From a virus (Duplodnaviria > Heunggongvirae > Uroviricota > Caudoviricetes): 64,000 bases of DNA. Position 1 is the first letter of the stretch; the number at the start of each line of letters is the position of its first letter. This document shows positions 5,929 through 21,953 of this stretch, in pieces. Under the pieces are notes generated by a model that worked only from the letters and a program-made list of their open reading frames with translations, was not told the origin of the DNA and searched no databases. The DNA lies in the IMG/VR virus record IMGVR_UViG_3300025765_000001. The stretch is one strand, 5' to 3'. The translations under genes and the position numbers were made by a program.

Positions 5929-6290
5929 TGGTCTCTGGCGGCACCGACCTGATTTTCATTTGCCCTGGCAAGGTAGATGTTTTGGATACCGTCCTCCTCC
6001 ACTTCCGAAAGAAGTGGCCCAACCTCGTTTATGAAAGCGATTGCAGGATGGGGTCGGACCTGAAGGAGTTTTTTCTTTACGCCGATTCGGACGTGAAAGA
6101 AAAGATAGAAGAGGTTGGGGTGGAGGACGATCTAGCTCCGCACTTCGTACATCTCTTGTTCCGGCCAATCGGCCAAACTGTAAGACACTACATTCAAGAA
6201 GTCACCATCGTAGTAGACAAGTTGGATCAGTCTATATTTCCAGTAATTGAAATTATACAAAGGGACTTTCTACGTGGCTACATGGATTGA
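5928..6290 (+). CDS. Hypothetical protein
   Basis: TAATG translational coupling to the upstream gene. Confidence 0.6.
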   Translation: MVSGGTDLIFICPGKVDVLDTVLLHFRKKWPNLVYESDCRMGSDLKEFFLYADSDVKEKIEEVGVEDDLAPHFVHLLFRPIGQTVRHYIQEVTIVVDKLDQSIFPVIEIIQRDFLRGYMD

Positions 6291-6340
6291 CATTTCTAGC
6301 CGTTCTGATACTCTGGCCTGATTAACGAACGGAGAAGAGT

Positions 6341-7750
6341 ATGGGTTCCATGACAATCGATGGTTTCGAGCATTTGCATCTACACACTGACTTTAGCCTT
6401 CTCGATGGCTACGGCATGGTTGAGGAATATGCGAAGAGAGCGATACAGATTAACCAGAAATTCCTTTGCGTTTCGGATCACGGCATGATGGGCGTCGTGC
6501 CCCGGCAGATTCGGGCTTGTGACGAAAATAAAATCAATCCTGTTTTTGCCTGCGAACTATATGTCAATCCTCGTCAGCCAGAAATCCCAGAGTCAACTAC
6601 TACAGCCAAGTTCATCGAAAGTTGGGATGATCTCGACAAGAAGCAGATGCGTAAATCTTATCATTTGCTCGCCATTGCCTACAATCAACAGGGCTATAGC
6701 AACCTAGTGAAACTCTCTTCGTGGGGTTGGACCAAGGGCTATTACTACCGTCCCAGAGTCAATCACGAGCTACTTCAAGCCCACAAAGACGGCATTATTT
6801 TCACGAGTTGTTGCTACAACGGTGAAATTGGTCAAGCGTTCGACCGGGCATTACATCCGCCAGATGGTTCCAAAGGCAGTATAGAAGCTGCCGAGGAAGC
6901 CGGGTTCGCTATGATCGAAAAGTACATGGTGATGTTTGGCAAAGACTTCTATTTGGAATTGATGCTTTTGGATTTTGTTAAGCAGAAGCCATATGACCGC
7001 TTCATCGTCAAAGCCCATCTGAAGTACGGTGTGCCGATCATCGTTACCAACGACTGTCACTACTGTCTAGAGGTAGATAGCCGAATGCAGCGGTTGATGT
7101 TGATGATCCAGACCAACAAGACCATCGGCCAGATTCAACAGTTGATTAACGAGAACGAAGGGGCTGACCTGTTCGAGCTACAAGATCAAAACTTGTGGCT
7201 CAAGTCCGAGGAAGAGATCAACCAGAAGTGGTTGAAGGACTATAGCGATGTCATAGATTATGAAATCCTCAGTCAAGCGAAGAAAAACACCGTGGCTATA
7301 TGCGAACGTGCTAGGGGCGTTCAACTAGACCGGTCTATCAAGCTACCAAAAATTACCGATGCCGATCTGAAATTCAAAGAAGCGATTATGCAAGGAGCCA
7401 CTCAGCGGCGTATTCCCATGACTAAGGAATACGTCGAACGCATCAAGGAAGAGTATACGCTTATCTGTCAAAAAGGCTTTTCTAGCTACTTCCTCATCAC
7501 GAAAATGATGACGGATGAGGCTAGACGGATTTGTCCGTCTTTGTTAGGATTTGGCACCGGACACGAAGCTGTGGGTCCAGGTAGAGGATCGGCGGTCGGG
7601 GCACTAGTTTGCTACTGTTTGGGTATAACTGATGTTGACCCGATTAAGCATGATCTGCTATTCTCTAGATTCCTTAGCCCGGCTCGTGGCGGCAAATCTC
7701 TGAAATTGAGATTTTCCAACATTGACCCGGTGCTGCCAGAGGCGGCGTAA
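6341..7750 (+). CDS. dnaE: DNA polymerase III alpha (family C), N-terminal half: PHP domain to GRGS motif
   Basis: HLHLHTDFSLLDG, VSDHG, TNDCHY, GPGRGSAVGALVCYCLGITDVDPI..LLFSRFL; ends before PDIDID. Confidence 0.95.
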   Translation: MGSMTIDGFEHLHLHTDFSLLDGYGMVEEYAKRAIQINQKFLCVSDHGMMGVVPRQIRACDENKINPVFACELYVNPRQPEIPESTTTAKFIESWDDLDKKQMRKSYHLLAIAYNQQGYSNLVKLSSWGWTKGYYYRPRVNHELLQAHKDGIIFTSCCYNGEIGQAFDRALHPPDGSKGSIEAAEEAGFAMIEKYMVMFGKDFYLELMLLDFVKQKPYDRFIVKAHLKYGVPIIVTNDCHYCLEVDSRMQRLMLMIQTNKTIGQIQQLINENEGADLFELQDQNLWLKSEEEINQKWLKDYSDVIDYEILSQAKKNTVAICERARGVQLDRSIKLPKITDADLKFKEAIMQGATQRRIPMTKEYVERIKEEYTLICQKGFSSYFLITKMMTDEARRICPSLLGFGTGHEAVGPGRGSAVGALVCYCLGITDVDPIKHDLLFSRFLSPARGGKSLKLRFSNIDPVLPEAA

Positions 7751-8223
7751 TGTCAGAGCTAGAAATCCCAGAGGTAGTTCATCGAGTAGTTCGTAAGGAG
7801 CTAGATGAGGACTGCCAGTTTGAAGAAGGTCAGAAGACCATCATCGTCCAGTCGAAATCGATGGCTAAGGCGTTCATAACCCCGGATGTGTGTTGGGCGG
7901 CGATCTCGATTGCCGCACACGAAGGCGATTGGCCGACCCTGAATGCGACGAAACGCATGGGGTTGTTACAGTTATTCTTCCTCGATTGCGACCGCTCGGT
8001 GGGTCCGAAGTTTTCTGAGGGAACTAGCTTGTTTACAGAGAGCCATGCAGATCAAATTCTTGATTTCCTGAATTACGTTTGGGACAGGATTGATTTGTTG
8101 TTCGTGCATTGCGAAGCTGGGATTTCCAGATCACCGGCTGTGGCTGCCACAATTTGCAAAATGAAATATGGCCACGACAAGCACTTCTTTGATAACTATA
8201 CGCCCAACAGACTCGTGTACTGA
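7750..8223 (+). CDS. Tyrosine/dual-specificity protein phosphatase-like protein (possible premature TGA)
   Basis: CX5R motif VHCEAGISRS; the frame stays open for 14 more codons after TGA 8221. Confidence 0.85.
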   Translation: MSELEIPEVVHRVVRKELDEDCQFEEGQKTIIVQSKSMAKAFITPDVCWAAISIAAHEGDWPTLNATKRMGLLQLFFLDCDRSVGPKFSEGTSLFTESHADQILDFLNYVWDRIDLLFVHCEAGISRSPAVAATICKMKYGHDKHFFDNYTPNRLVY

Positions 8224-8289
8224 ACACTTCTAGAACGTGTAGTTTTTAGAGGTATTTACGTTCCGTGACCCTTTGAAAGGAGAAAGAAA

Positions 8290-9000
8290 ATGAGATTTCT
8301 AATGGCTGCTCTGGCTGGCCTGATGCTTGTTGTATCCCCAGCCTTGGCACAAGAAAAGCAAACACCAAGCATCGTCGTGACTGGCGAAGCTAAACTCAGC
8401 GTTAAACCTGAGTTGGCCTACGTGTCACTAGGCGTCGTGTCGGAAGCCCCAACCGCCTACGATGCTTTGCAGAAAAACAATGTTTCGATGAAGTCCTTGT
8501 TTACGCTCTTGAACGAGAGCAAGGTTGCCGAGAAGGACATTCAGACTTCCGGTTTCAACATCAGCCCCCGCTACGACTACAAGAACAATGAGACAAAGTT
8601 CCTGGGGTATACAGTTTCCAATAACGTCACGATTACCGTGCGAGATTTGGCGAACCTTGGGAAGCTCCTCGATGTCCTTGTGAAGAACGGTGCGAACAGC
8701 ATTCACGGCGTCACCTTCGGAGTTTGTGATCCGAGCAAGTTGGCCGACGACGTGCGAAAGGCTGCCATGCAGGATGCCAAGCGAAAAGCCACTTTGTACG
8801 CCGAGGGCGGCGAGTTCCGCTTGGGCGGGGTGATCTTCGTGACCGAGCTTGGCGTACCGAGAGCCAGCCCGCAGATGTACGCTGCTTCTCACATGGCTGA
8901 TGCCGAAGCTGGTGGGAACGTCCCGGTTTCTGGCGGGGAACTGACAGCAGCAGTACGTCTCCAGGTGACTTTTGCCATCGGGGGTCCGCTGCTGAACTAA
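8290..9000 (+). CDS. SIMPL (DUF541) domain exported protein
   Basis: Signal peptide; SIVVTGEA..SVKPELA.VSLGV, A..DA..KA..YA, VPVSGGE. Confidence 0.9.
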   Translation: MRFLMAALAGLMLVVSPALAQEKQTPSIVVTGEAKLSVKPELAYVSLGVVSEAPTAYDALQKNNVSMKSLFTLLNESKVAEKDIQTSGFNISPRYDYKNNETKFLGYTVSNNVTITVRDLANLGKLLDVLVKNGANSIHGVTFGVCDPSKLADDVRKAAMQDAKRKATLYAEGGEFRLGGVIFVTELGVPRASPQMYAASHMADAEAGGNVPVSGGELTAAVRLQVTFAIGGPLLN

Positions 9001-9054
9001 CGATAAGGTGCTGAACACCAAACTGTCCGTTCGTCCGAATGTGGACAAGTGATG

Positions 9055-9083
9055 TTGACACGCCTCACTGAAAACACTATAGT
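9055..9083 (+). promoter_or_regulatory. Sigma70-type promoter P1
   Basis: TTGACA(9055-60)-17 nt-TATAGT(9078-83). Confidence 0.7.
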
Positions 9084-9137
9084 GGGGCCTTGATATGACC
9101 CTGGCTTTGCCGTCAGGGGTGAATCTAGAAAAGAGGG

Positions 9138-9165
9138 TTGACATCAGCCTCGACTAGACTAGAAT
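9138..9165 (+). promoter_or_regulatory. Sigma70-type promoter P2; predicted start just before the first ACAGCA hairpin
   Basis: TTGACA(9138-43)-16 nt-TAGAAT(9160-65). Confidence 0.7.
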
Positions 9166-9174
9166 GTGAACTCA

Positions 9175-9226
9175 GAGACGCTCACAGCATCTTTCAATAC
9201 TATGACAAGGTTGAAGATAGCGTCTC
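9175..9226 (+). ncRNA. ACAGCA hairpin element 1 (candidate small RNA)
   Basis: Stem gagacgct/agcgtctc, ACAGCA at 9184-89, inner helix tct(t)tcaa/ttgaaga. Confidence 0.6.
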
Positions 9227-9231
9227 GTTTC

Positions 9232-9318
9232 GGGCGGTTAGCTTAACTGGACAGAGCATTCAGGAAAAGCCGCAAGGCCACTACTGAAGGGTTGGAGGTT
9301 CGAGTCCTTCACCGCCCA
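9232..9318 (+). ncRNA. tRNA-like RNA with the anticodon loop replaced by a 20-nt loop
   Basis: Acceptor GGGCGGT/ACCGCCC, D arm GCTT..TGG..GAGC, stem TTCAG/CTGAA, T arm GGAGG-TTCGAGT-CCTTC; no encoded CCA. Confidence 0.8.
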
Positions 9319-9321
9319 CTA

Positions 9322-16598: not shown

Positions 16599-18665
16599 AT
16601 GTCTATACACGACGAGAACAGAGAGCTACAGGACATACTATTGAACGCCCCCAGAAGAGCAGCATATAGAAAAAGCGATGATCGTAATTCGACGCCGGGC
16701 TACGTTGATGAAGATGACTTCAACGCTGGCAAGCTAGTTCAATGGACTACCGGCGACGGCCTTCGCTTTTTCCCTGCGGGGCATACGCTGAATGAGCTTC
16801 CTCCTGGGGCATACGAACCTGCGTATACCCCAGAGAAGGGGTACTTCATGCAAAAGGTTCACGTTAAGACCGAGGGTCTGTTGCAATTCCCAGAGACGAA
16901 TTCCGAGAGAGTTATCAACGAGATTCAGAAGTTCTGGGATCGGGAAGACCTTTTTTGTGACTACAGCTTGACGCACAAGCGTGGCATCATGCTGTGGGGG
17001 CCTCCGGGTTGTCATCGCAAAGGCACCAGGGTCATTATGGCTGATGGTTCTCTCAAGAATGTAGAGAATGTAGTAGAAGGCGATTCGCTGATGGGGCCTG
17101 ATTCGTGTCCAAGGAAGGTTTTTGCTCTTTGTCGAGGACGTGATTTAATGTACAAGATCACGCCGAATAAAGGAGAGCCTTTCTATGTGAATGCTAATCA
17201 TATTCTGAGTTTGAAACGGTCGGGGGACGTTCGCAAGGTTTCTTGGATTCCAGATGTACTCAATATAAAGGTTTCCGACTATTTGAAATTGTCAAAAACA
17301 ACTCGTGCTAGGCTCAAACTATATCACACAGGTGTGTTATATGAAGAGCGTTTGCTTCCGCTAGACTCTTACTTTTTGGGGGTTTGGCTGGGAGACGGGT
17401 ACGAGGACAATACGGCTGTTACGACTCAAGATCGAGAGATCATTGCTTGTGTTGAGCATATAGCCAATCAGTTCGGACTGAATGTTAATCCGCAACAAAA
17501 GCCTGATTCTAAAGCAGCCAGTTATTACATAACATCTGGTCCAATGCGTTTGGGAGTGCAAAAAGAAGGCAGGAATCCCCTTCGTACTTTGTTGAAAGAG
17601 TTGGGCGTCTTGCAGAATAAGAGGATACCTTATATCTATTCTACCTCCAGTCGTATGCAACGATTGCAGTTGCTTGCCGGGCTTATTGATACAGATGGTA
17701 ATTATGTTTCCAAGAGACTCAAGGATGGGCGTGCAAGTAAAGGATATTACGAAGTCACTCAGAAGCGGCATGATCTTGCTTGTGATATTCAAGCATTGGC
17801 CCGGAGTTTGGGGATGGGAGCCACTATTAACAAGAAGTATGTCGATGGTGATTTGTATTGGTGTGTTAATGTGTTTGGCGAAATACAAAACATACCTGTC
17901 AGAATCAGCTATAAGAAAGCACCGGTTGGCACCTCAAATAAAGACCCCCTAGTTACTGGATTCAAAATCAAATCAGTAGGGATTGAGAATTATTATGGAT
18001 TTCATCTTGAGAAGGACCATTTGTATTTGACGAGCGATTACGTCGTTCATCATAATTCTGGCAAATCATGTACAATCCAGTTGGTAATGGCCGACGTGAT
18101 TCGGCGAGGCGGTGTAGCCATCATCTTCGAGGAGCCGAATCTATATCTGGAAAACGTGCGGCAGTTTCGTGAGATTCAACCGAACACGCCCCTCGTTGTG
18201 TTGATGGAAGATATAGATTCGATTCTAGAAATACACAACGAGAGCGAGGTACTCAACATTCTCGACGGCGTTGAGAAAATCGAGAAAGTTGTTTATCTGG
18301 CTACGACTAACTATCCAGAGGTACTCGGCGAGCGTATTATCAACAGGCCGAGTAGATTCGACCGTCGATTCAAGATGCCGCACCCTCGCAGTGCATCTCG
18401 CAAACTATACTTTGAGCATCTGCTTAAAGGCAAGGAAGAAAAACTAGCTGGAATCATGGATGTCGAGAAGTGGGTCAAGGATACCAGAGGAATGAGTATC
18501 GCTCACTTGAAGGAGTTGTTCGTCTCGGTGTGTATTCTTGGCGACGACTACGACGAAACGATTAGAGTTCTCAACTCGATGATGGAGGACCAGCCGGACT
18601 CTAAAGACGACCGTGAGGACAAAGCAGGAATGGGGTTTAATCGCAATGACTCGAACTTTGATTAA
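16599..18665 (+). CDS. AAA+ ATPase with an intein in Walker A
   Basis: GIMLWGPPG|intein|SGKS, Walker B VLMEDID, ATTNYPE, RPSRFDR. Confidence 0.92.
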   Translation: MSIHDENRELQDILLNAPRRAAYRKSDDRNSTPGYVDEDDFNAGKLVQWTTGDGLRFFPAGHTLNELPPGAYEPAYTPEKGYFMQKVHVKTEGLLQFPETNSERVINEIQKFWDREDLFCDYSLTHKRGIMLWGPPGCHRKGTRVIMADGSLKNVENVVEGDSLMGPDSCPRKVFALCRGRDLMYKITPNKGEPFYVNANHILSLKRSGDVRKVSWIPDVLNIKVSDYLKLSKTTRARLKLYHTGVLYEERLLPLDSYFLGVWLGDGYEDNTAVTTQDREIIACVEHIANQFGLNVNPQQKPDSKAASYYITSGPMRLGVQKEGRNPLRTLLKELGVLQNKRIPYIYSTSSRMQRLQLLAGLIDTDGNYVSKRLKDGRASKGYYEVTQKRHDLACDIQALARSLGMGATINKKYVDGDLYWCVNVFGEIQNIPVRISYKKAPVGTSNKDPLVTGFKIKSVGIENYYGFHLEKDHLYLTSDYVVHHNSGKSCTIQLVMADVIRRGGVAIIFEEPNLYLENVRQFREIQPNTPLVVLMEDIDSILEIHNESEVLNILDGVEKIEKVVYLATTNYPEVLGERIINRPSRFDRRFKMPHPRSASRKLYFEHLLKGKEEKLAGIMDVEKWVKDTRGMSIAHLKELFVSVCILGDDYDETIRVLNSMMEDQPDSKDDREDKAGMGFNRNDSNFD
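17010..18056 (+). mobile_element. Intein (349 aa) with LAGLIDADG homing endonuclease
   Basis: Starts CHRKGTRVIMADGS, contains FLGVWLGDG and LLAGLIDTDG, ends YVVHHN followed by S(+1). Confidence 0.95.
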
Positions 18666-19128
18666 GGTAATCTCAGGCGGGCAGACTGGTGCCGACCTGG
18701 GCGGGCTAAAGGCAGCCAAAGCATCTGGTATACAGACCGGTGGTTTGATACCTTCTGGGTTTCTTACCGAGGTAGGTCCACGCCCTGAGTATGGGCCGCT
18801 CTACGGCCTAATCCAGCATCCGTCGAACAGGTATGAACCCAGGACGGTTGCCAACGTGTTGAACTCCGATGGCACAATTATTTTCTCTAGCAACTTCGGC
18901 TCTCCAGGCAGCAAGTTGACAATGGAGGCTTGTGGTCGGGCACCGAAACCCATGAAGTTGATCGATGTGCGTTCTTCGGGCGAGAATGCCGTGGACGATG
19001 TAGTGGCGTGGCTGCAAGAGAACAATATCCGAACTCTGAATGTGGCTGGGAATAGAGAGTCTAAGTCTCCCGGCATAGAGAAGTTTGTAGAGACCTTCCT
19101 GATCGAAGTCTTCAAGAAACTAGGCTAG
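18646..19128 (+). CDS. SLOG-superfamily 'putative molybdenum carrier' protein
   Basis: KVISGGQTGAD, RTVANVLNSDGT, LNVAGNRES. Confidence 0.88.
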   Translation: MTRTLIKVISGGQTGADLGGLKAAKASGIQTGGLIPSGFLTEVGPRPEYGPLYGLIQHPSNRYEPRTVANVLNSDGTIIFSSNFGSPGSKLTMEACGRAPKPMKLIDVRSSGENAVDDVVAWLQENNIRTLNVAGNRESKSPGIEKFVETFLIEVFKKLG

Positions 19129-19181
19129 TCAGAATTCTCCCGTTCGGCTATACTAGTCTAATTCAGAACGGGAGTAGAGGT

Positions 19182-21953
19182 ATGACGAGCAAGGATAGAC
19201 TACAAGACCTGTGCCAGCAGGCTCTTGTAGACAAGGGTTTCGCAAACGACGTATACAAAATCCGGCTTCGTGACGAGTTCATGCATGTCGATGTACAGGG
19301 TGAGTACGAGTACTTCCTCGACCTGTACGACCGGAAGGTTCGCTACCCTAAAAACCAACATAATCTTCTCATTCCATATCTATTAGGTATTGTAGATCAT
19401 TTCGACATAGAACAGGATTCGGCCCACGTCTTTGGCGAGTTTCCTGACATCGACATTGATTACCTTCCACAGATACGAGATCATCTCAAAAACGTCTGGG
19501 CCATTGAAGAATTCGGCAAAGAGAACGTCTGTGCCATCGGCAACTATACGACGTTCGGCATCAAGAGTGCCCTCATCGACATGGCGAGGGTTCACGACTG
19601 CGATCGTGAGGAGATTCTATCCCTCACAACCCAGTTTGGCTTGAAAGACGATTCCGGCAAAGCCTTGACTTGGGATTCGGCAATGAAGCTCTACCCGGAG
19701 CTAGAAGCCTACTGTAAGGCACATCCAGATGTAGCCGATGCTGCCAAGCGACTTCTCAATCGCAATCGTGGTATGGGTATGCACGCTGGTGGTTTAATTG
19801 TCGCCAATCAATCTATCGACAAGCTGGTTCCATTGGTGAAGGGCAGGGATGCACAACACGTCTCGGCGTTTGTGGAGGGTCTTCATGGTACAGACCTGGG
19901 GCCGTTGGGTCTGATTAAGTTCGACTTGTTGGTAATCACCGATCTCCTTCGCATTGTGTTGACGTGTAAGCTGGTGAAGGAGCGGTACGGGTTGGAATCT
20001 ATCAGTGCCCTTCCAGGTCAACCAGATTGGTCTGATACGAGCTATCTGAATGACCCCAAGGCCCTGGAGATGGCGGGCAAAGGGCAACTCACTGGCATTT
20101 TCCAATTCGATTCCTCTGGCATCCGCAAGCTCGCACGAGATGGCGGCGTTACCAGCTTTGATGATCTCTGTGCCTATTCCGCTCTCTACCGCCCTGGTCC
20201 GTTGGGTATGGGAATGCATACGCATTATGTAGAGAGGAAAAACGGAAGGGATGCAGAGTGGATCAAACATCTACATCCCATCTTGAAACCCATCCTTGGC
20301 AAGACTTACGGGGTTATGGTTTTTCAAGAGCAGGTTATGCAGATACTCAACGCAGTCGGCGGTATCCCGCTGAAAGACTGCGAGATCGTGCGTAAGGCCA
20401 TCTCGAAGAAGAAGGTCAAAGAGTTTGGTAAGTATAAGGAGCAGTTCCTAGAGGAAGGCTCACGTCGCACTGGTTGGCCTATCGAATCAGTGATGGTCCC
20501 TTCCAAGGGCGAAACACCGGGTATGGTGCCTACTAACGCACCGTGTATGCAAGGTCTGTGGGACCAGATAGAGAGCTTTGCAGAATACGGCTTCAACAAG
20601 TCACACACGGTAGCTTACACTTACATTTCATCTAGGTTGCTATACTTCAAGGCCCACTATCCTCTGGAGTTCTACACCGTCACGTTGCAAATAGCTGGCG
20701 AAGACGATAAGATCAAGGAATACAAGCGTGACGCCGAGCGTCATGGTATTAAGATTCAGAAACTAGACATGAATCTATCGAAGGAAAACTTCTGCATTGT
20801 TGATAACAAGGTCTACGTTGGTTTCAGAAACATTAAGGGCATTGGTGAAGAGGTTGCCAAGGAGATCGTATCGAAGCAGCCATATAAGTCTTTTGAGGAT
20901 TTCTTGGCCCGCTATGGCACCGATGCTAATGTGGTGAAGCCGCTGGTCTGTCTTGGCGTGTTCGAGGATGGCTCACGAGATGTTCTGTGGGAATTCTATG
21001 AACACTACAAGAAGGAAACCAAGCGACGTATAGATCGTGACAAGCGGCAGGATAAATCTCAGGAGAAATACGCCGAGGAACTACGTTTCTTGCTGCGTGA
21101 ATGGGGTTGTATAGATGAGGATACTAGCCAGCCGATGGAACCCCAGGCGGTCTTCGATTTCATTGAGAAGCATAGCTTTACCGATGACTTGGAACTGCAC
21201 AAGGCCATTACCGGGGCAGAGGGTGAAGAACAAATTCCTGGGTTTGATGCTTTTCTAGCGTGGAAGGTATACAAAAAGTATAAGCGGTCTAAGGACAATT
21301 TTGCCGTCAAGAAAGGTGAGGATAAGCCGATCTCGCTGAAGTCATTCGAGCCGATCGGTGAACTAGAACCAGAGGTTAAGGAACTTCTCGGCAAGGATGT
21401 TATGGATCAGGAGTCGATATTCTACGGCTTCAGTTGGCAGCACCCTTTAGAGCTTAGTTCTGACTTTTGCCACGATGAGGACCGAACCTTCCGTCAATTC
21501 GAGGAAGATCAATCTCTAAGTATAGCGTTGGTCGAAGTGATGGTGTCCTACGAGGATATCAATCGCAAGGGCAAGACCAAAGGTGCAAAAAAGGAATTTG
21601 AAAATCCCAGGAAGGGGCAGAGTAAGTCCAAGAAGGAAGTCTGGTGGATGGACCTCTATGTAGAAGATGCCGACTTCGTGCAGAAGCGTGTTCGCTTCTG
21701 GAGCGATGATTACGAGCGGTTCAAGGATGATTTGGCTAAGGGTAACTTACTTAAACTACGGGTTCGTCGGCAGGCGGAATATGGCAACTTCACACTAGAT
21801 GGCCCCAAGAAGCACCTACGCCTCACTCTGCCGCCGAAGGAGCATGATCCCCGTTTACAAGTAATGCGTAAGGCTGAACAGACCAAAACGGCAGTGCAAT
21901 GCTCCGATGACACCCAGGCCGTACTAGATGAAATACGAGGTATGTTTTCATGA
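19182..21953 (+). CDS. dnaE: DNA polymerase III alpha, C-terminal catalytic half
   Basis: FPDIDID, GMHAGG, GLIKFDLL, GIFQFDS, ALYRPGP, YGVMVFQEQVM, FAEYGFNKSH, KGIGE. Confidence 0.95.
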   Translation: MTSKDRLQDLCQQALVDKGFANDVYKIRLRDEFMHVDVQGEYEYFLDLYDRKVRYPKNQHNLLIPYLLGIVDHFDIEQDSAHVFGEFPDIDIDYLPQIRDHLKNVWAIEEFGKENVCAIGNYTTFGIKSALIDMARVHDCDREEILSLTTQFGLKDDSGKALTWDSAMKLYPELEAYCKAHPDVADAAKRLLNRNRGMGMHAGGLIVANQSIDKLVPLVKGRDAQHVSAFVEGLHGTDLGPLGLIKFDLLVITDLLRIVLTCKLVKERYGLESISALPGQPDWSDTSYLNDPKALEMAGKGQLTGIFQFDSSGIRKLARDGGVTSFDDLCAYSALYRPGPLGMGMHTHYVERKNGRDAEWIKHLHPILKPILGKTYGVMVFQEQVMQILNAVGGIPLKDCEIVRKAISKKKVKEFGKYKEQFLEEGSRRTGWPIESVMVPSKGETPGMVPTNAPCMQGLWDQIESFAEYGFNKSHTVAYTYISSRLLYFKAHYPLEFYTVTLQIAGEDDKIKEYKRDAERHGIKIQKLDMNLSKENFCIVDNKVYVGFRNIKGIGEEVAKEIVSKQPYKSFEDFLARYGTDANVVKPLVCLGVFEDGSRDVLWEFYEHYKKETKRRIDRDKRQDKSQEKYAEELRFLLREWGCIDEDTSQPMEPQAVFDFIEKHSFTDDLELHKAITGAEGEEQIPGFDAFLAWKVYKKYKRSKDNFAVKKGEDKPISLKSFEPIGELEPEVKELLGKDVMDQESIFYGFSWQHPLELSSDFCHDEDRTFRQFEEDQSLSIALVEVMVSYEDINRKGKTKGAKKEFENPRKGQSKSKKEVWWMDLYVEDADFVQKRVRFWSDDYERFKDDLAKGNLLKLRVRRQAEYGNFTLDGPKKHLRLTLPPKEHDPRLQVMRKAEQTKTAVQCSDDTQAVLDEIRGMFS

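Follow-up and report, generated by a model that had tools for sequence, protein, structure and literature searches.

The catalytic subunit of a replicative polymerase is almost always one chain. Here, we describe a DnaE-type (C-family) DNA polymerase that a huge tailed phage (Caudoviricetes; IMG/VR virus record IMGVR_UViG_3300025765_000001) encodes as two separate open reading frames (ORFs), referred to as the N-half and the C-half. Both lie in a stretch of 64,000 nucleotides (the window), which is part of a 436-kb record with an estimated completeness of 85%; genome-wide statements below refer to that record. An earlier reading of the window (the original prediction), made from the letters alone, had pointed to an intein-free split DnaE.

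The closest precedent is the polymerase of the T4-like group 2.2 jumbo phages, where a "minimal" Pol III alpha comes as two separate proteins, of which the N-terminal one binds nucleoside triphosphates (NTPs) and the C-terminal one binds Mg2+ and the template (Iyer et al. 2021, Viruses 13:63, PMC7824862). The two proteins, whose genes are far apart and for which no intein is mentioned, are predicted to reconstitute one enzyme (PMC7824862). Judged by that paper's description only, the present phage shares with the group 2.2 form the cut between the same NTP- and Mg2+-binding sub-domains and the distant position of the two genes. The group 2.2 form is, however, reduced to the catalytic core and the other alpha domains are absent, whereas the form described here has PHP, fingers, and HhH domains and a long C-terminal region. 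The group 2.2 form is also accessory, sitting beside a family B polymerase, whereas a search of the 436-kb record with PF00136 gave zero family B matches. Furthermore, an overlap of about 100 amino acids (aa) is kept in both halves here and none is reported for the group 2.2 form. In the literature, we found no description of a full-size split DnaE with overlap in huge phages, the nearest being that of Iyer et al. (PMC7824862).

In the split DnaE of cyanobacteria and the "fractured" dnaE of phages, a split intein links the pieces covalently, and the insertion points of such inteins differ from one another (Dassa et al. 2009, PMC2677866). These systems resemble our case in that two genes deliver products acting as one polymerase, and the fractured pieces lie in order at one locus with foreign genes between them. 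In contrast to the intein at their junction, the phage described here has a duplicated palm segment with a helical head and without the nucleophile or His-Asn residues. The original prediction had set this locus apart from the trans-spliced cyanobacterial DnaE; that contrast stands as far as the ORFs go, as neither carries an intein, and its remainder is drawn from the literature. Essential phage enzymes made as two polypeptides without an intein have been described as well: in the same article (PMC2677866), the family B polymerase gp43 of Aeromonas phage 25 is given as an intein-less fractured gene arrangement, and the two parts of nrdA of Aeh1 as shown to form a functional ribonucleotide reductase. 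These are other enzyme families, recently split by a homing-endonuclease gene that is still in the gap, whereas the split of the phage DnaE appears old, has no endonuclease conserved in the gap, and shows a long overlap.

A dnaE gene cut inside the palm

Sequence analysis confirmed that the N-half and the C-half together are the phage's only bacterial-type replicative DNA polymerase (DnaE), made as two proteins without an intein. The N-half (6341-7750, 469 aa) consists of a PHP exonuclease-type domain and the nucleotide-binding palm sub-domain, and the C-half (19182-21953, 923 aa) comprises a degenerate head, the catalytic palm, thumb, fingers, HhH, and a C-terminal region. Both are encoded on the + strand, as are all their features given below. 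They are separated by 11.4 kb of unrelated genes (7750-19181), with 11,431 nt between the stop of the N-half and the start of the C-half.

In Pfam searches, the PHP domain (PF02811) covers residues 11-208 of the N-half (6371-6964; E 4e-38), and the DNA_pol3_alpha profile (PF07733) is divided over the two proteins: profile positions 4-98 correspond to residues 346-449 of the N-half and positions 100-259 to residues 86-250 of the C-half. The C-half further contains the fingers domain (DNA_pol3_finger, PF17657) at residues 288-427 (20043-20462; E 2.4e-42) and the HhH DNA-binding domain (HHH_6, PF14579) at residues 522-596 (20745-20969; E 7.7e-14). Neither ORF matched any of the Hint/intein families in Pfam. 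Alignments to structures in the PDB pair residues 2-450 of the N-half with residues 3-417 of Mycobacterium tuberculosis DnaE1, and residues 107-449 with 82-396 of Escherichia coli alpha; residues 86-580 of the C-half align with 398-871 of E. coli alpha and with 461-927 of the Taq enzyme. The cut thus falls exactly between the RFLNPER and MPDIDID motifs (E. coli alpha 396/398). It lies inside the Pol-beta-like palm and separates the G[GS] nucleotide-binding element from the strand with the first two catalytic Asp. The original prediction had named two intein-free ORFs 11.4 kb apart, broken in the stretch between these motifs, and the domain matches, the measured gap, and the alignments bear it out on each of these points.

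The two ORFs are the only DNA_pol3_alpha matches in the 436-kb genome, and profile searches of the record, which is about 85% complete, found no contiguous dnaE copy. No single polypeptide carries all DnaE domains; PHP, palm, fingers, and HhH are present on two chains. One DnaQ-like ORF was found in the genome, and a search for a beta-clamp with PF02768 gave zero matches. The sole other polymerase-like match found is a short PolA-like ORF of 439 aa outside the window (G000:C1:46483-47145), which matches positions 142-378 only of the DNA_pol_A model.

Complementary residues on the two chains

The triphosphate of the incoming deoxynucleotide is bound in E. coli and Taq alpha by the G[GS] loop with its Arg and by the two Arg of RFLNPER. 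In the present phage, the corresponding motifs GPGRGS (7574-7591) and RFLSPAR (7667-7687) are both on the N-half, and R415, G416, S417, R443, and R449 are invariant in 78 N-halves. The catalytic strand PDIDID (19443-19460) and the K246-F-D248 motif with the third catalytic Asp and its partner Lys (19917-19925) are on the C-half, where P88, D89, D91, D93, K246, and D248 are invariant in 79 sequences. By the alignment offset, D89 and D91 are the equivalents of E. coli D401 and D403; K246/D248 are those of K553/D555 by homology. GRGS was found in none of the C-half heads that were inspected. The triphosphate-binding set is thus on the N-half, the catalytic Asp/Lys set is on the C-half, and neither chain has both.

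The nine metal-ligand positions of the PHP domain (H13, H15, D22, H47, E72, H108, C158, D238, and H240) are invariant or nearly so in 78 relatives; in the original prediction, the metal ligands had been described as apparently intact.

A duplicated and reciprocally decayed junction segment

The N-half holds the intact copy of a palm segment (residues 341-449; 7361-7687), of which the head of the C-half (residues 1-85; 19182-19436) is a conserved helical, degenerate copy. Residues 2-85 of the C-half are colinear with residues 341-445 of the contiguous DnaE of a Moorella phage and with 320-420 of that of a Streptomyces phage, and in comparison with intact phage DnaE, an 11-aa deletion in the head takes out GPGRGSxxGS. 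BLASTP of the N-half against residues 1-100 of the C-half gave no significant match in the proposed register, and the Pfam DNA_pol3_alpha model does not reach into the head. As plain BLASTP is blind to the duplication, profiles were needed. When 107 C-half heads, trimmed three residues before PDIDID to avoid anchoring by that motif, were compared with 116 N-half ends, hhalign matched residues 2-46 of the head to residues ~341-386 of the N-half (probability 92.7%, E 4.3e-7).

The head is conserved family-wide and under constraint as judged by its alignment columns. Mean pairwise column identity is 0.44 in the head, 0.63 in the palm, and 0.25-0.35 in the C-terminal linker and OB regions. E32, Y44, N58, and N61 are invariant; an N-E-N-N loop takes the place of GPGRGS, and RFLxPxR is lacking. 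In a lineage of 34% identity, the head still resembles the ancestral segment, including ..TDVDPIK... One relative (P0187) has a long N-terminal extension ahead of its head.

At the other side of the cut, the N-half continues for 20 aa beyond RFLSPAR (residues 450-469; 7688-7747). The 11-aa stretch at residues 450-460 (GGKSLKLRFSN) is conserved family-wide, and the tail consensus is RGG-K/R-x-M-K-L-R-F-x-x-D-P. From its alternating hydrophobic pattern, this tail may be a vestige of the catalytic strand in which the acidic residues were replaced. Each half thus appears to retain the whole junction segment, decayed in a complementary fashion, and the duplicated bundle may serve as a docking surface or as a folding placeholder. 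The degenerate copy without GRGS at the start of the C-half had been noticed in the original prediction and is upheld here at a length of 85 aa, while the claim that the N-half stops at RFLSPAR has to be corrected in view of its conserved tail.

Structure models

The complex was modeled from residues 1-469 of the N-half and 1-520 of the C-half with family alignments. Its interaction prediction score from aligned errors (ipSAE) was 0.82, and the best of three controls reached 0.00; the ipSAE mark is reached by 58 of 80 solved complexes and by 2 of 110 mismatched pairs. The runs share at least 95% of contacts, and the predicted local distance difference test (pLDDT) score of the partners is at least 84. 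In the model, the GRGS loop of the N-half (residues 408-420) contacts residues 93-95 of the C-half as well as residues 472-482, which carry the finger motif F-N-K-S-H. N-half residues 390-394 contact residues 94-106 of the C-half, and both the tail of the N-half (442-466) and the head of the C-half (31-62) are within the predicted interface.

Residues 1-520 of the C-half were also folded alone, with a pLDDT of 87 (86-97 in the head); values below 50 were obtained for residues 86-90, where the catalytic strand begins. This model resembles Taq, E. coli, and M. tuberculosis alpha with Z scores of 18-22 over 394-438 aligned residues and a root mean square deviation of 4.6-7.7. In the structural alignments to DnaE chains, the model is covered from residue 1 to 520 in some cases and from 41-83 to 520 in others.

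Spread in huge phages

The N-half and the C-half recur together, in conserved form, across a very large family of huge, uncultured phages. In a set of 8000 scored candidates with lengths of 257-821 aa, 4951 proteins reach E<=1e-20 against the N-half; identity is 59-88% for the best 120, nearly all of which are 412-481 aa long. The best C-half matches measure 833-996 aa and lack a PHP match, with six shorter or longer outliers. Nine pairs of N- and C-halves have longest contigs of equal size (19-669 kb). In three contigs of relatives, both halves are on one strand with the N-half first, at a distance of 4.4 kb in L014, 4.0 kb in L015, and 3.7 kb in L019, so that split distances across the cases are 3.7-11.4 kb, and the arrangement recurs in the lineage of 34% identity. 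The conservation of the split in related phages, which had been proposed as a check, is thereby established. Pipelines annotate the halves separately, the one as "PHP domain protein" and the other as "hypothetical" or "Pol III alpha".

An exhaustive search with clustering at 50% yielded more proteins limited to the N-half, at 30-44% identity. Most of them end 8-25 residues past RFLxPxR; P0271 and P0337 are longer here and extend further by about 65 and 37 residues, respectively. A search of viral contigs for homologous loci returned only distant intact DnaE loci of 27-39% identity, which were not used further.

Some of the relatives' halves (among P0050, P0243-P0252, and P0167) are themselves interrupted by inteins. 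P0050 has an intein between GPGRG and S, several N-halves show a break near residues 228-240 at the N-D-C-H motif of PHP, and one relative's C-half of 1310 aa contains an intein. These inteins are at conserved motifs, and none is at the fission point.

A probable old fission and later re-fusion

A contiguous DnaE of 1179 aa is encoded by the 595-kb genome LR756511.1 (L001:10786-14325). Identity to the N-half is 57% and to the C-half 43%, and the domains and their order are those of the split enzyme, but all are on a single chain, with a canonical RFLS..R..PDVDVD junction and without head and tail. In a tree of the N-part (46 sequences, IQ-TREE in its careful setting, rooted by distant sequences only), this protein (P0003) and two further contiguous ones (P0248 and P0254) are nested in the core split clade (100/100), and outer split lineages branch below this trio (95/89). 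The C-part tree agrees, with the trio within the core split clade (100/100) and a distant split C-half outside (97/96).

Alternative topologies were compared with approximately unbiased (AU) tests, for which the constraint groups were defined after the tree was seen. Holding the 29 split sequences of the clade together without the contiguous trio cost 94.9 log-likelihood units (AU p 0.0011), and holding all 34 split sequences together was rejected as well (AU p 6e-6). Monophyly of the 25 core split sequences alone was not rejected (p 0.46), and only the wider test is informative. Because contiguous relatives are nested within the split clade in both trees, the halves behave as parts of one gene. 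As head and tail are common to distant split lineages, one fission and one re-fusion are more economical than at least three identical fissions. One old fission followed by re-fusion in LR756511.1-type relatives is therefore probable.

Upstream regions

In the region ahead of the N-half (6288-6340, + strand), there are a TTGACA (-35) box (6288-6293) and a CCGTTC-N21-GAACGG palindrome (6300-6332), and the ATG is preceded by an AGAAGAG ribosome-binding stretch; the consensus promoter scan did not score a promoter here. Ahead of the C-half (19126-19181, + strand), a promoter-like TAGTCA-17-TATACT (19126-19154) overlaps a CCGTTC-N20-GAACGG palindrome (19140-19171), and a TAGAGG ribosome-binding stretch is present as well. 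The pattern CCGTTC-N20/21-GAACGG has only two sites in the 436-kb genome. Each half has one of them, ending 9-10 nt ahead of its start codon, and the two resemble each other in their loops (TATACT and GATACT). In L020, a relative of 88% identity, TTGACA and CCGTT..AACGG are retained ahead of the N-half. The palindrome is thus a possible shared operator, proposed from its placement.

A likely two-chain polymerase and the alternatives

We consider it likely that this DnaE-type polymerase consists of two non-covalent subunits without protein splicing, with its active site across the interface, and that it goes back to an old fission by duplication. The N-half would give the PHP proofreading-type domain and the triphosphate binders, namely GPGRGS and the two Arg of RFLSPAR, and the C-half would give the three catalytic Asp, the partner Lys, the thumb, fingers, and HhH. 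The two chains would associate non-covalently to form one active site spanning the interface. The split would have arisen once, long ago, by duplication of a junction segment of about 110 aa, after which the acidic strand would have disappeared from the N-half, which still has the helices and GRGS, and both GRGS and RFLxPxR from the C-half, which still has the strand. Unrelated genes would later have gathered in the gap, and the conserved head of the C-half and tail of the N-half probably assist folding or docking. We infer the heterodimer, the composite active site, the origin, and the role of head and tail from the combined evidence above. Since the same cut and overlap are found across the huge-phage family, one catalytic centre is most likely built from two chains, and the predicted heterodimer is well supported in silico. 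The heterodimeric replicase of the original prediction is supported in part, by the complex model with its controls, the co-conservation of the halves, and the complementary residues; for the duplicated bundle, the docking or domain-swap role proposed there is one possibility beside that of a folding placeholder.

Several observations weigh against this reading. The complex score may reflect the likeness of the halves to solved single-chain DnaE; as halves of a split gene can pass by such likeness, the model shows that the canonical fold is rebuildable from two chains, not that they bind. The lone C-half folds confidently, and in some structural alignments its head extends over the place that the missing palm helices would normally take, roughly where the corresponding segment of the N-half would belong; the C-half could be structurally self-sufficient. 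Furthermore, the palindrome was not found before the halves of the more distant L014, L015, L019, and L022, and a reversed-pattern control likewise gave two sites genome-wide, and because the counts are equal, the count is not significant and only the placement is telling.

An alternative is an autonomous C-half polymerase, with the N-half as a separate PHP exonuclease or pyrophosphatase accessory whose palm fragment is a handle, so that the site is not shared; the binding of epsilon to alpha in E. coli offers a parallel. In its favor, the confident model of the lone C-half has the helical head packed on the palm, that head is conserved, and the DnaQ-like exonuclease in the genome makes accessory proofreaders plausible. 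This arrangement nevertheless appears unlikely to us, given the invariance of GRGS and of the two RFLxPxR Arg in the N-half, which would have no use for them if its palm fragment were just a handle, and their absence from every head inspected. The model moreover sets the GRGS loop of the N-half on the catalytic strand, and the G[GS] motif is established as part of the active site in Pol-beta-fold nucleotidyltransferases. A later joining of the halves, by a cryptic or dead split intein, by RNA trans-splicing, or by excision of the 11.4-kb insert during infection, has precedents in the split-intein DnaE of cyanobacteria and in "fractured" phage genes (PMC2677866). Inteins are also common in the family, for example at GRG|S of P0050 and in the neighboring AAA gene. 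It is very improbable here, as neither ORF has a Hint match, the junctions lack a conserved Cys/Ser/Thr or His-Asn, and the head is all-helical and palm-homologous, whereas the Hint fold is beta-rich. Each half also has its own start codon and ribosome-binding stretch, some gap genes are on the opposite strand, no recombinase is conserved in the gap, and a search for direct repeats bracketing it, as a sign of an excisable element, found none at the break points.

Misassembly, rearrangement, or pseudogene remnants could be suspected in a single metagenomic record that is about 85% complete, and an assembly rearrangement had been named at the outset as the finding that would undo the split. Such an artefact is scarcely credible in view of the same architecture in thousands of contigs that were assembled independently and come from many sources, both ORFs being open with invariant catalytic residues, and no other C-family polymerase in the genome.

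Beyond the two-subunit polymerase itself, a wider scenario can be put forward tentatively, as a possibility of some weight that stays short of probable. It comprises a radiation of huge phages with an obligate heterodimeric polymerase, fission by duplication and decay of about 110 aa, vestiges that dock, re-fusion in at least one lineage (the LR756511.1 type), and a shared palindrome with separate promoters gating assembly. With the nucleotide-binding motif and the metal-binding Asp on different proteins, the system would be a natural experiment on the assembly of a Pol-beta-fold site in trans. If true, it concerns the main replicase of a very abundant group among the largest known phages. The overlap and the apparent re-fusion would make this one of the rare cases in which gene fission by duplication and degeneration, as well as its reversal, can be dated, and the halves are potentially useful as a naturally split polymerase scaffold.

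Genes in the gap

The gene next to the N-half encodes a DSPc-like phosphatase (7750-8223, + strand), whose start overlaps the stop of the N-half (TAATG); such a gene also adjoins the 3' side of the N-half in L020. It is followed by a SIMPL/DUF541 gene (8290-9000) and by a gene for a DUF2828/DUF7788 vWA-type protein (9354-11108). A TnpB-like fragment of 307 aa with OrfB_IS605 and Cas12f1-like TNB matches (15099-16022, - strand) is probably one reason why the gap measures 11.4 kb here and about 4 kb in relatives.

An AAA ATPase of 688 aa (16599-18665, + strand) carries an intein, with a Hom_end-associated Hint at residues 138-215 and LAGLIDADG at residues 352-416. In the P0127 contig, L015, and L022, intein-free homologues of 312-340 aa precede the C-half. 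A role as clamp loader was ruled out by a PDB search, which placed the ATPase with the YjoB/AFG2/Cdc48/BCS1 type; that a remodelling ATPase between the halves aids their assembly is speculation. Directly upstream of the C-half is a gene for a cpYpsA (circularly permuted YpsA) SLOG protein (18613-19128, + strand). The AAA ATPase and/or cpYpsA precede the C-half in L014, L015, L022, and the P0127 contig as they do in the window; cpYpsA itself has this position in L014 and the P0127 contig, and a remnant of it is present in L022/L023.

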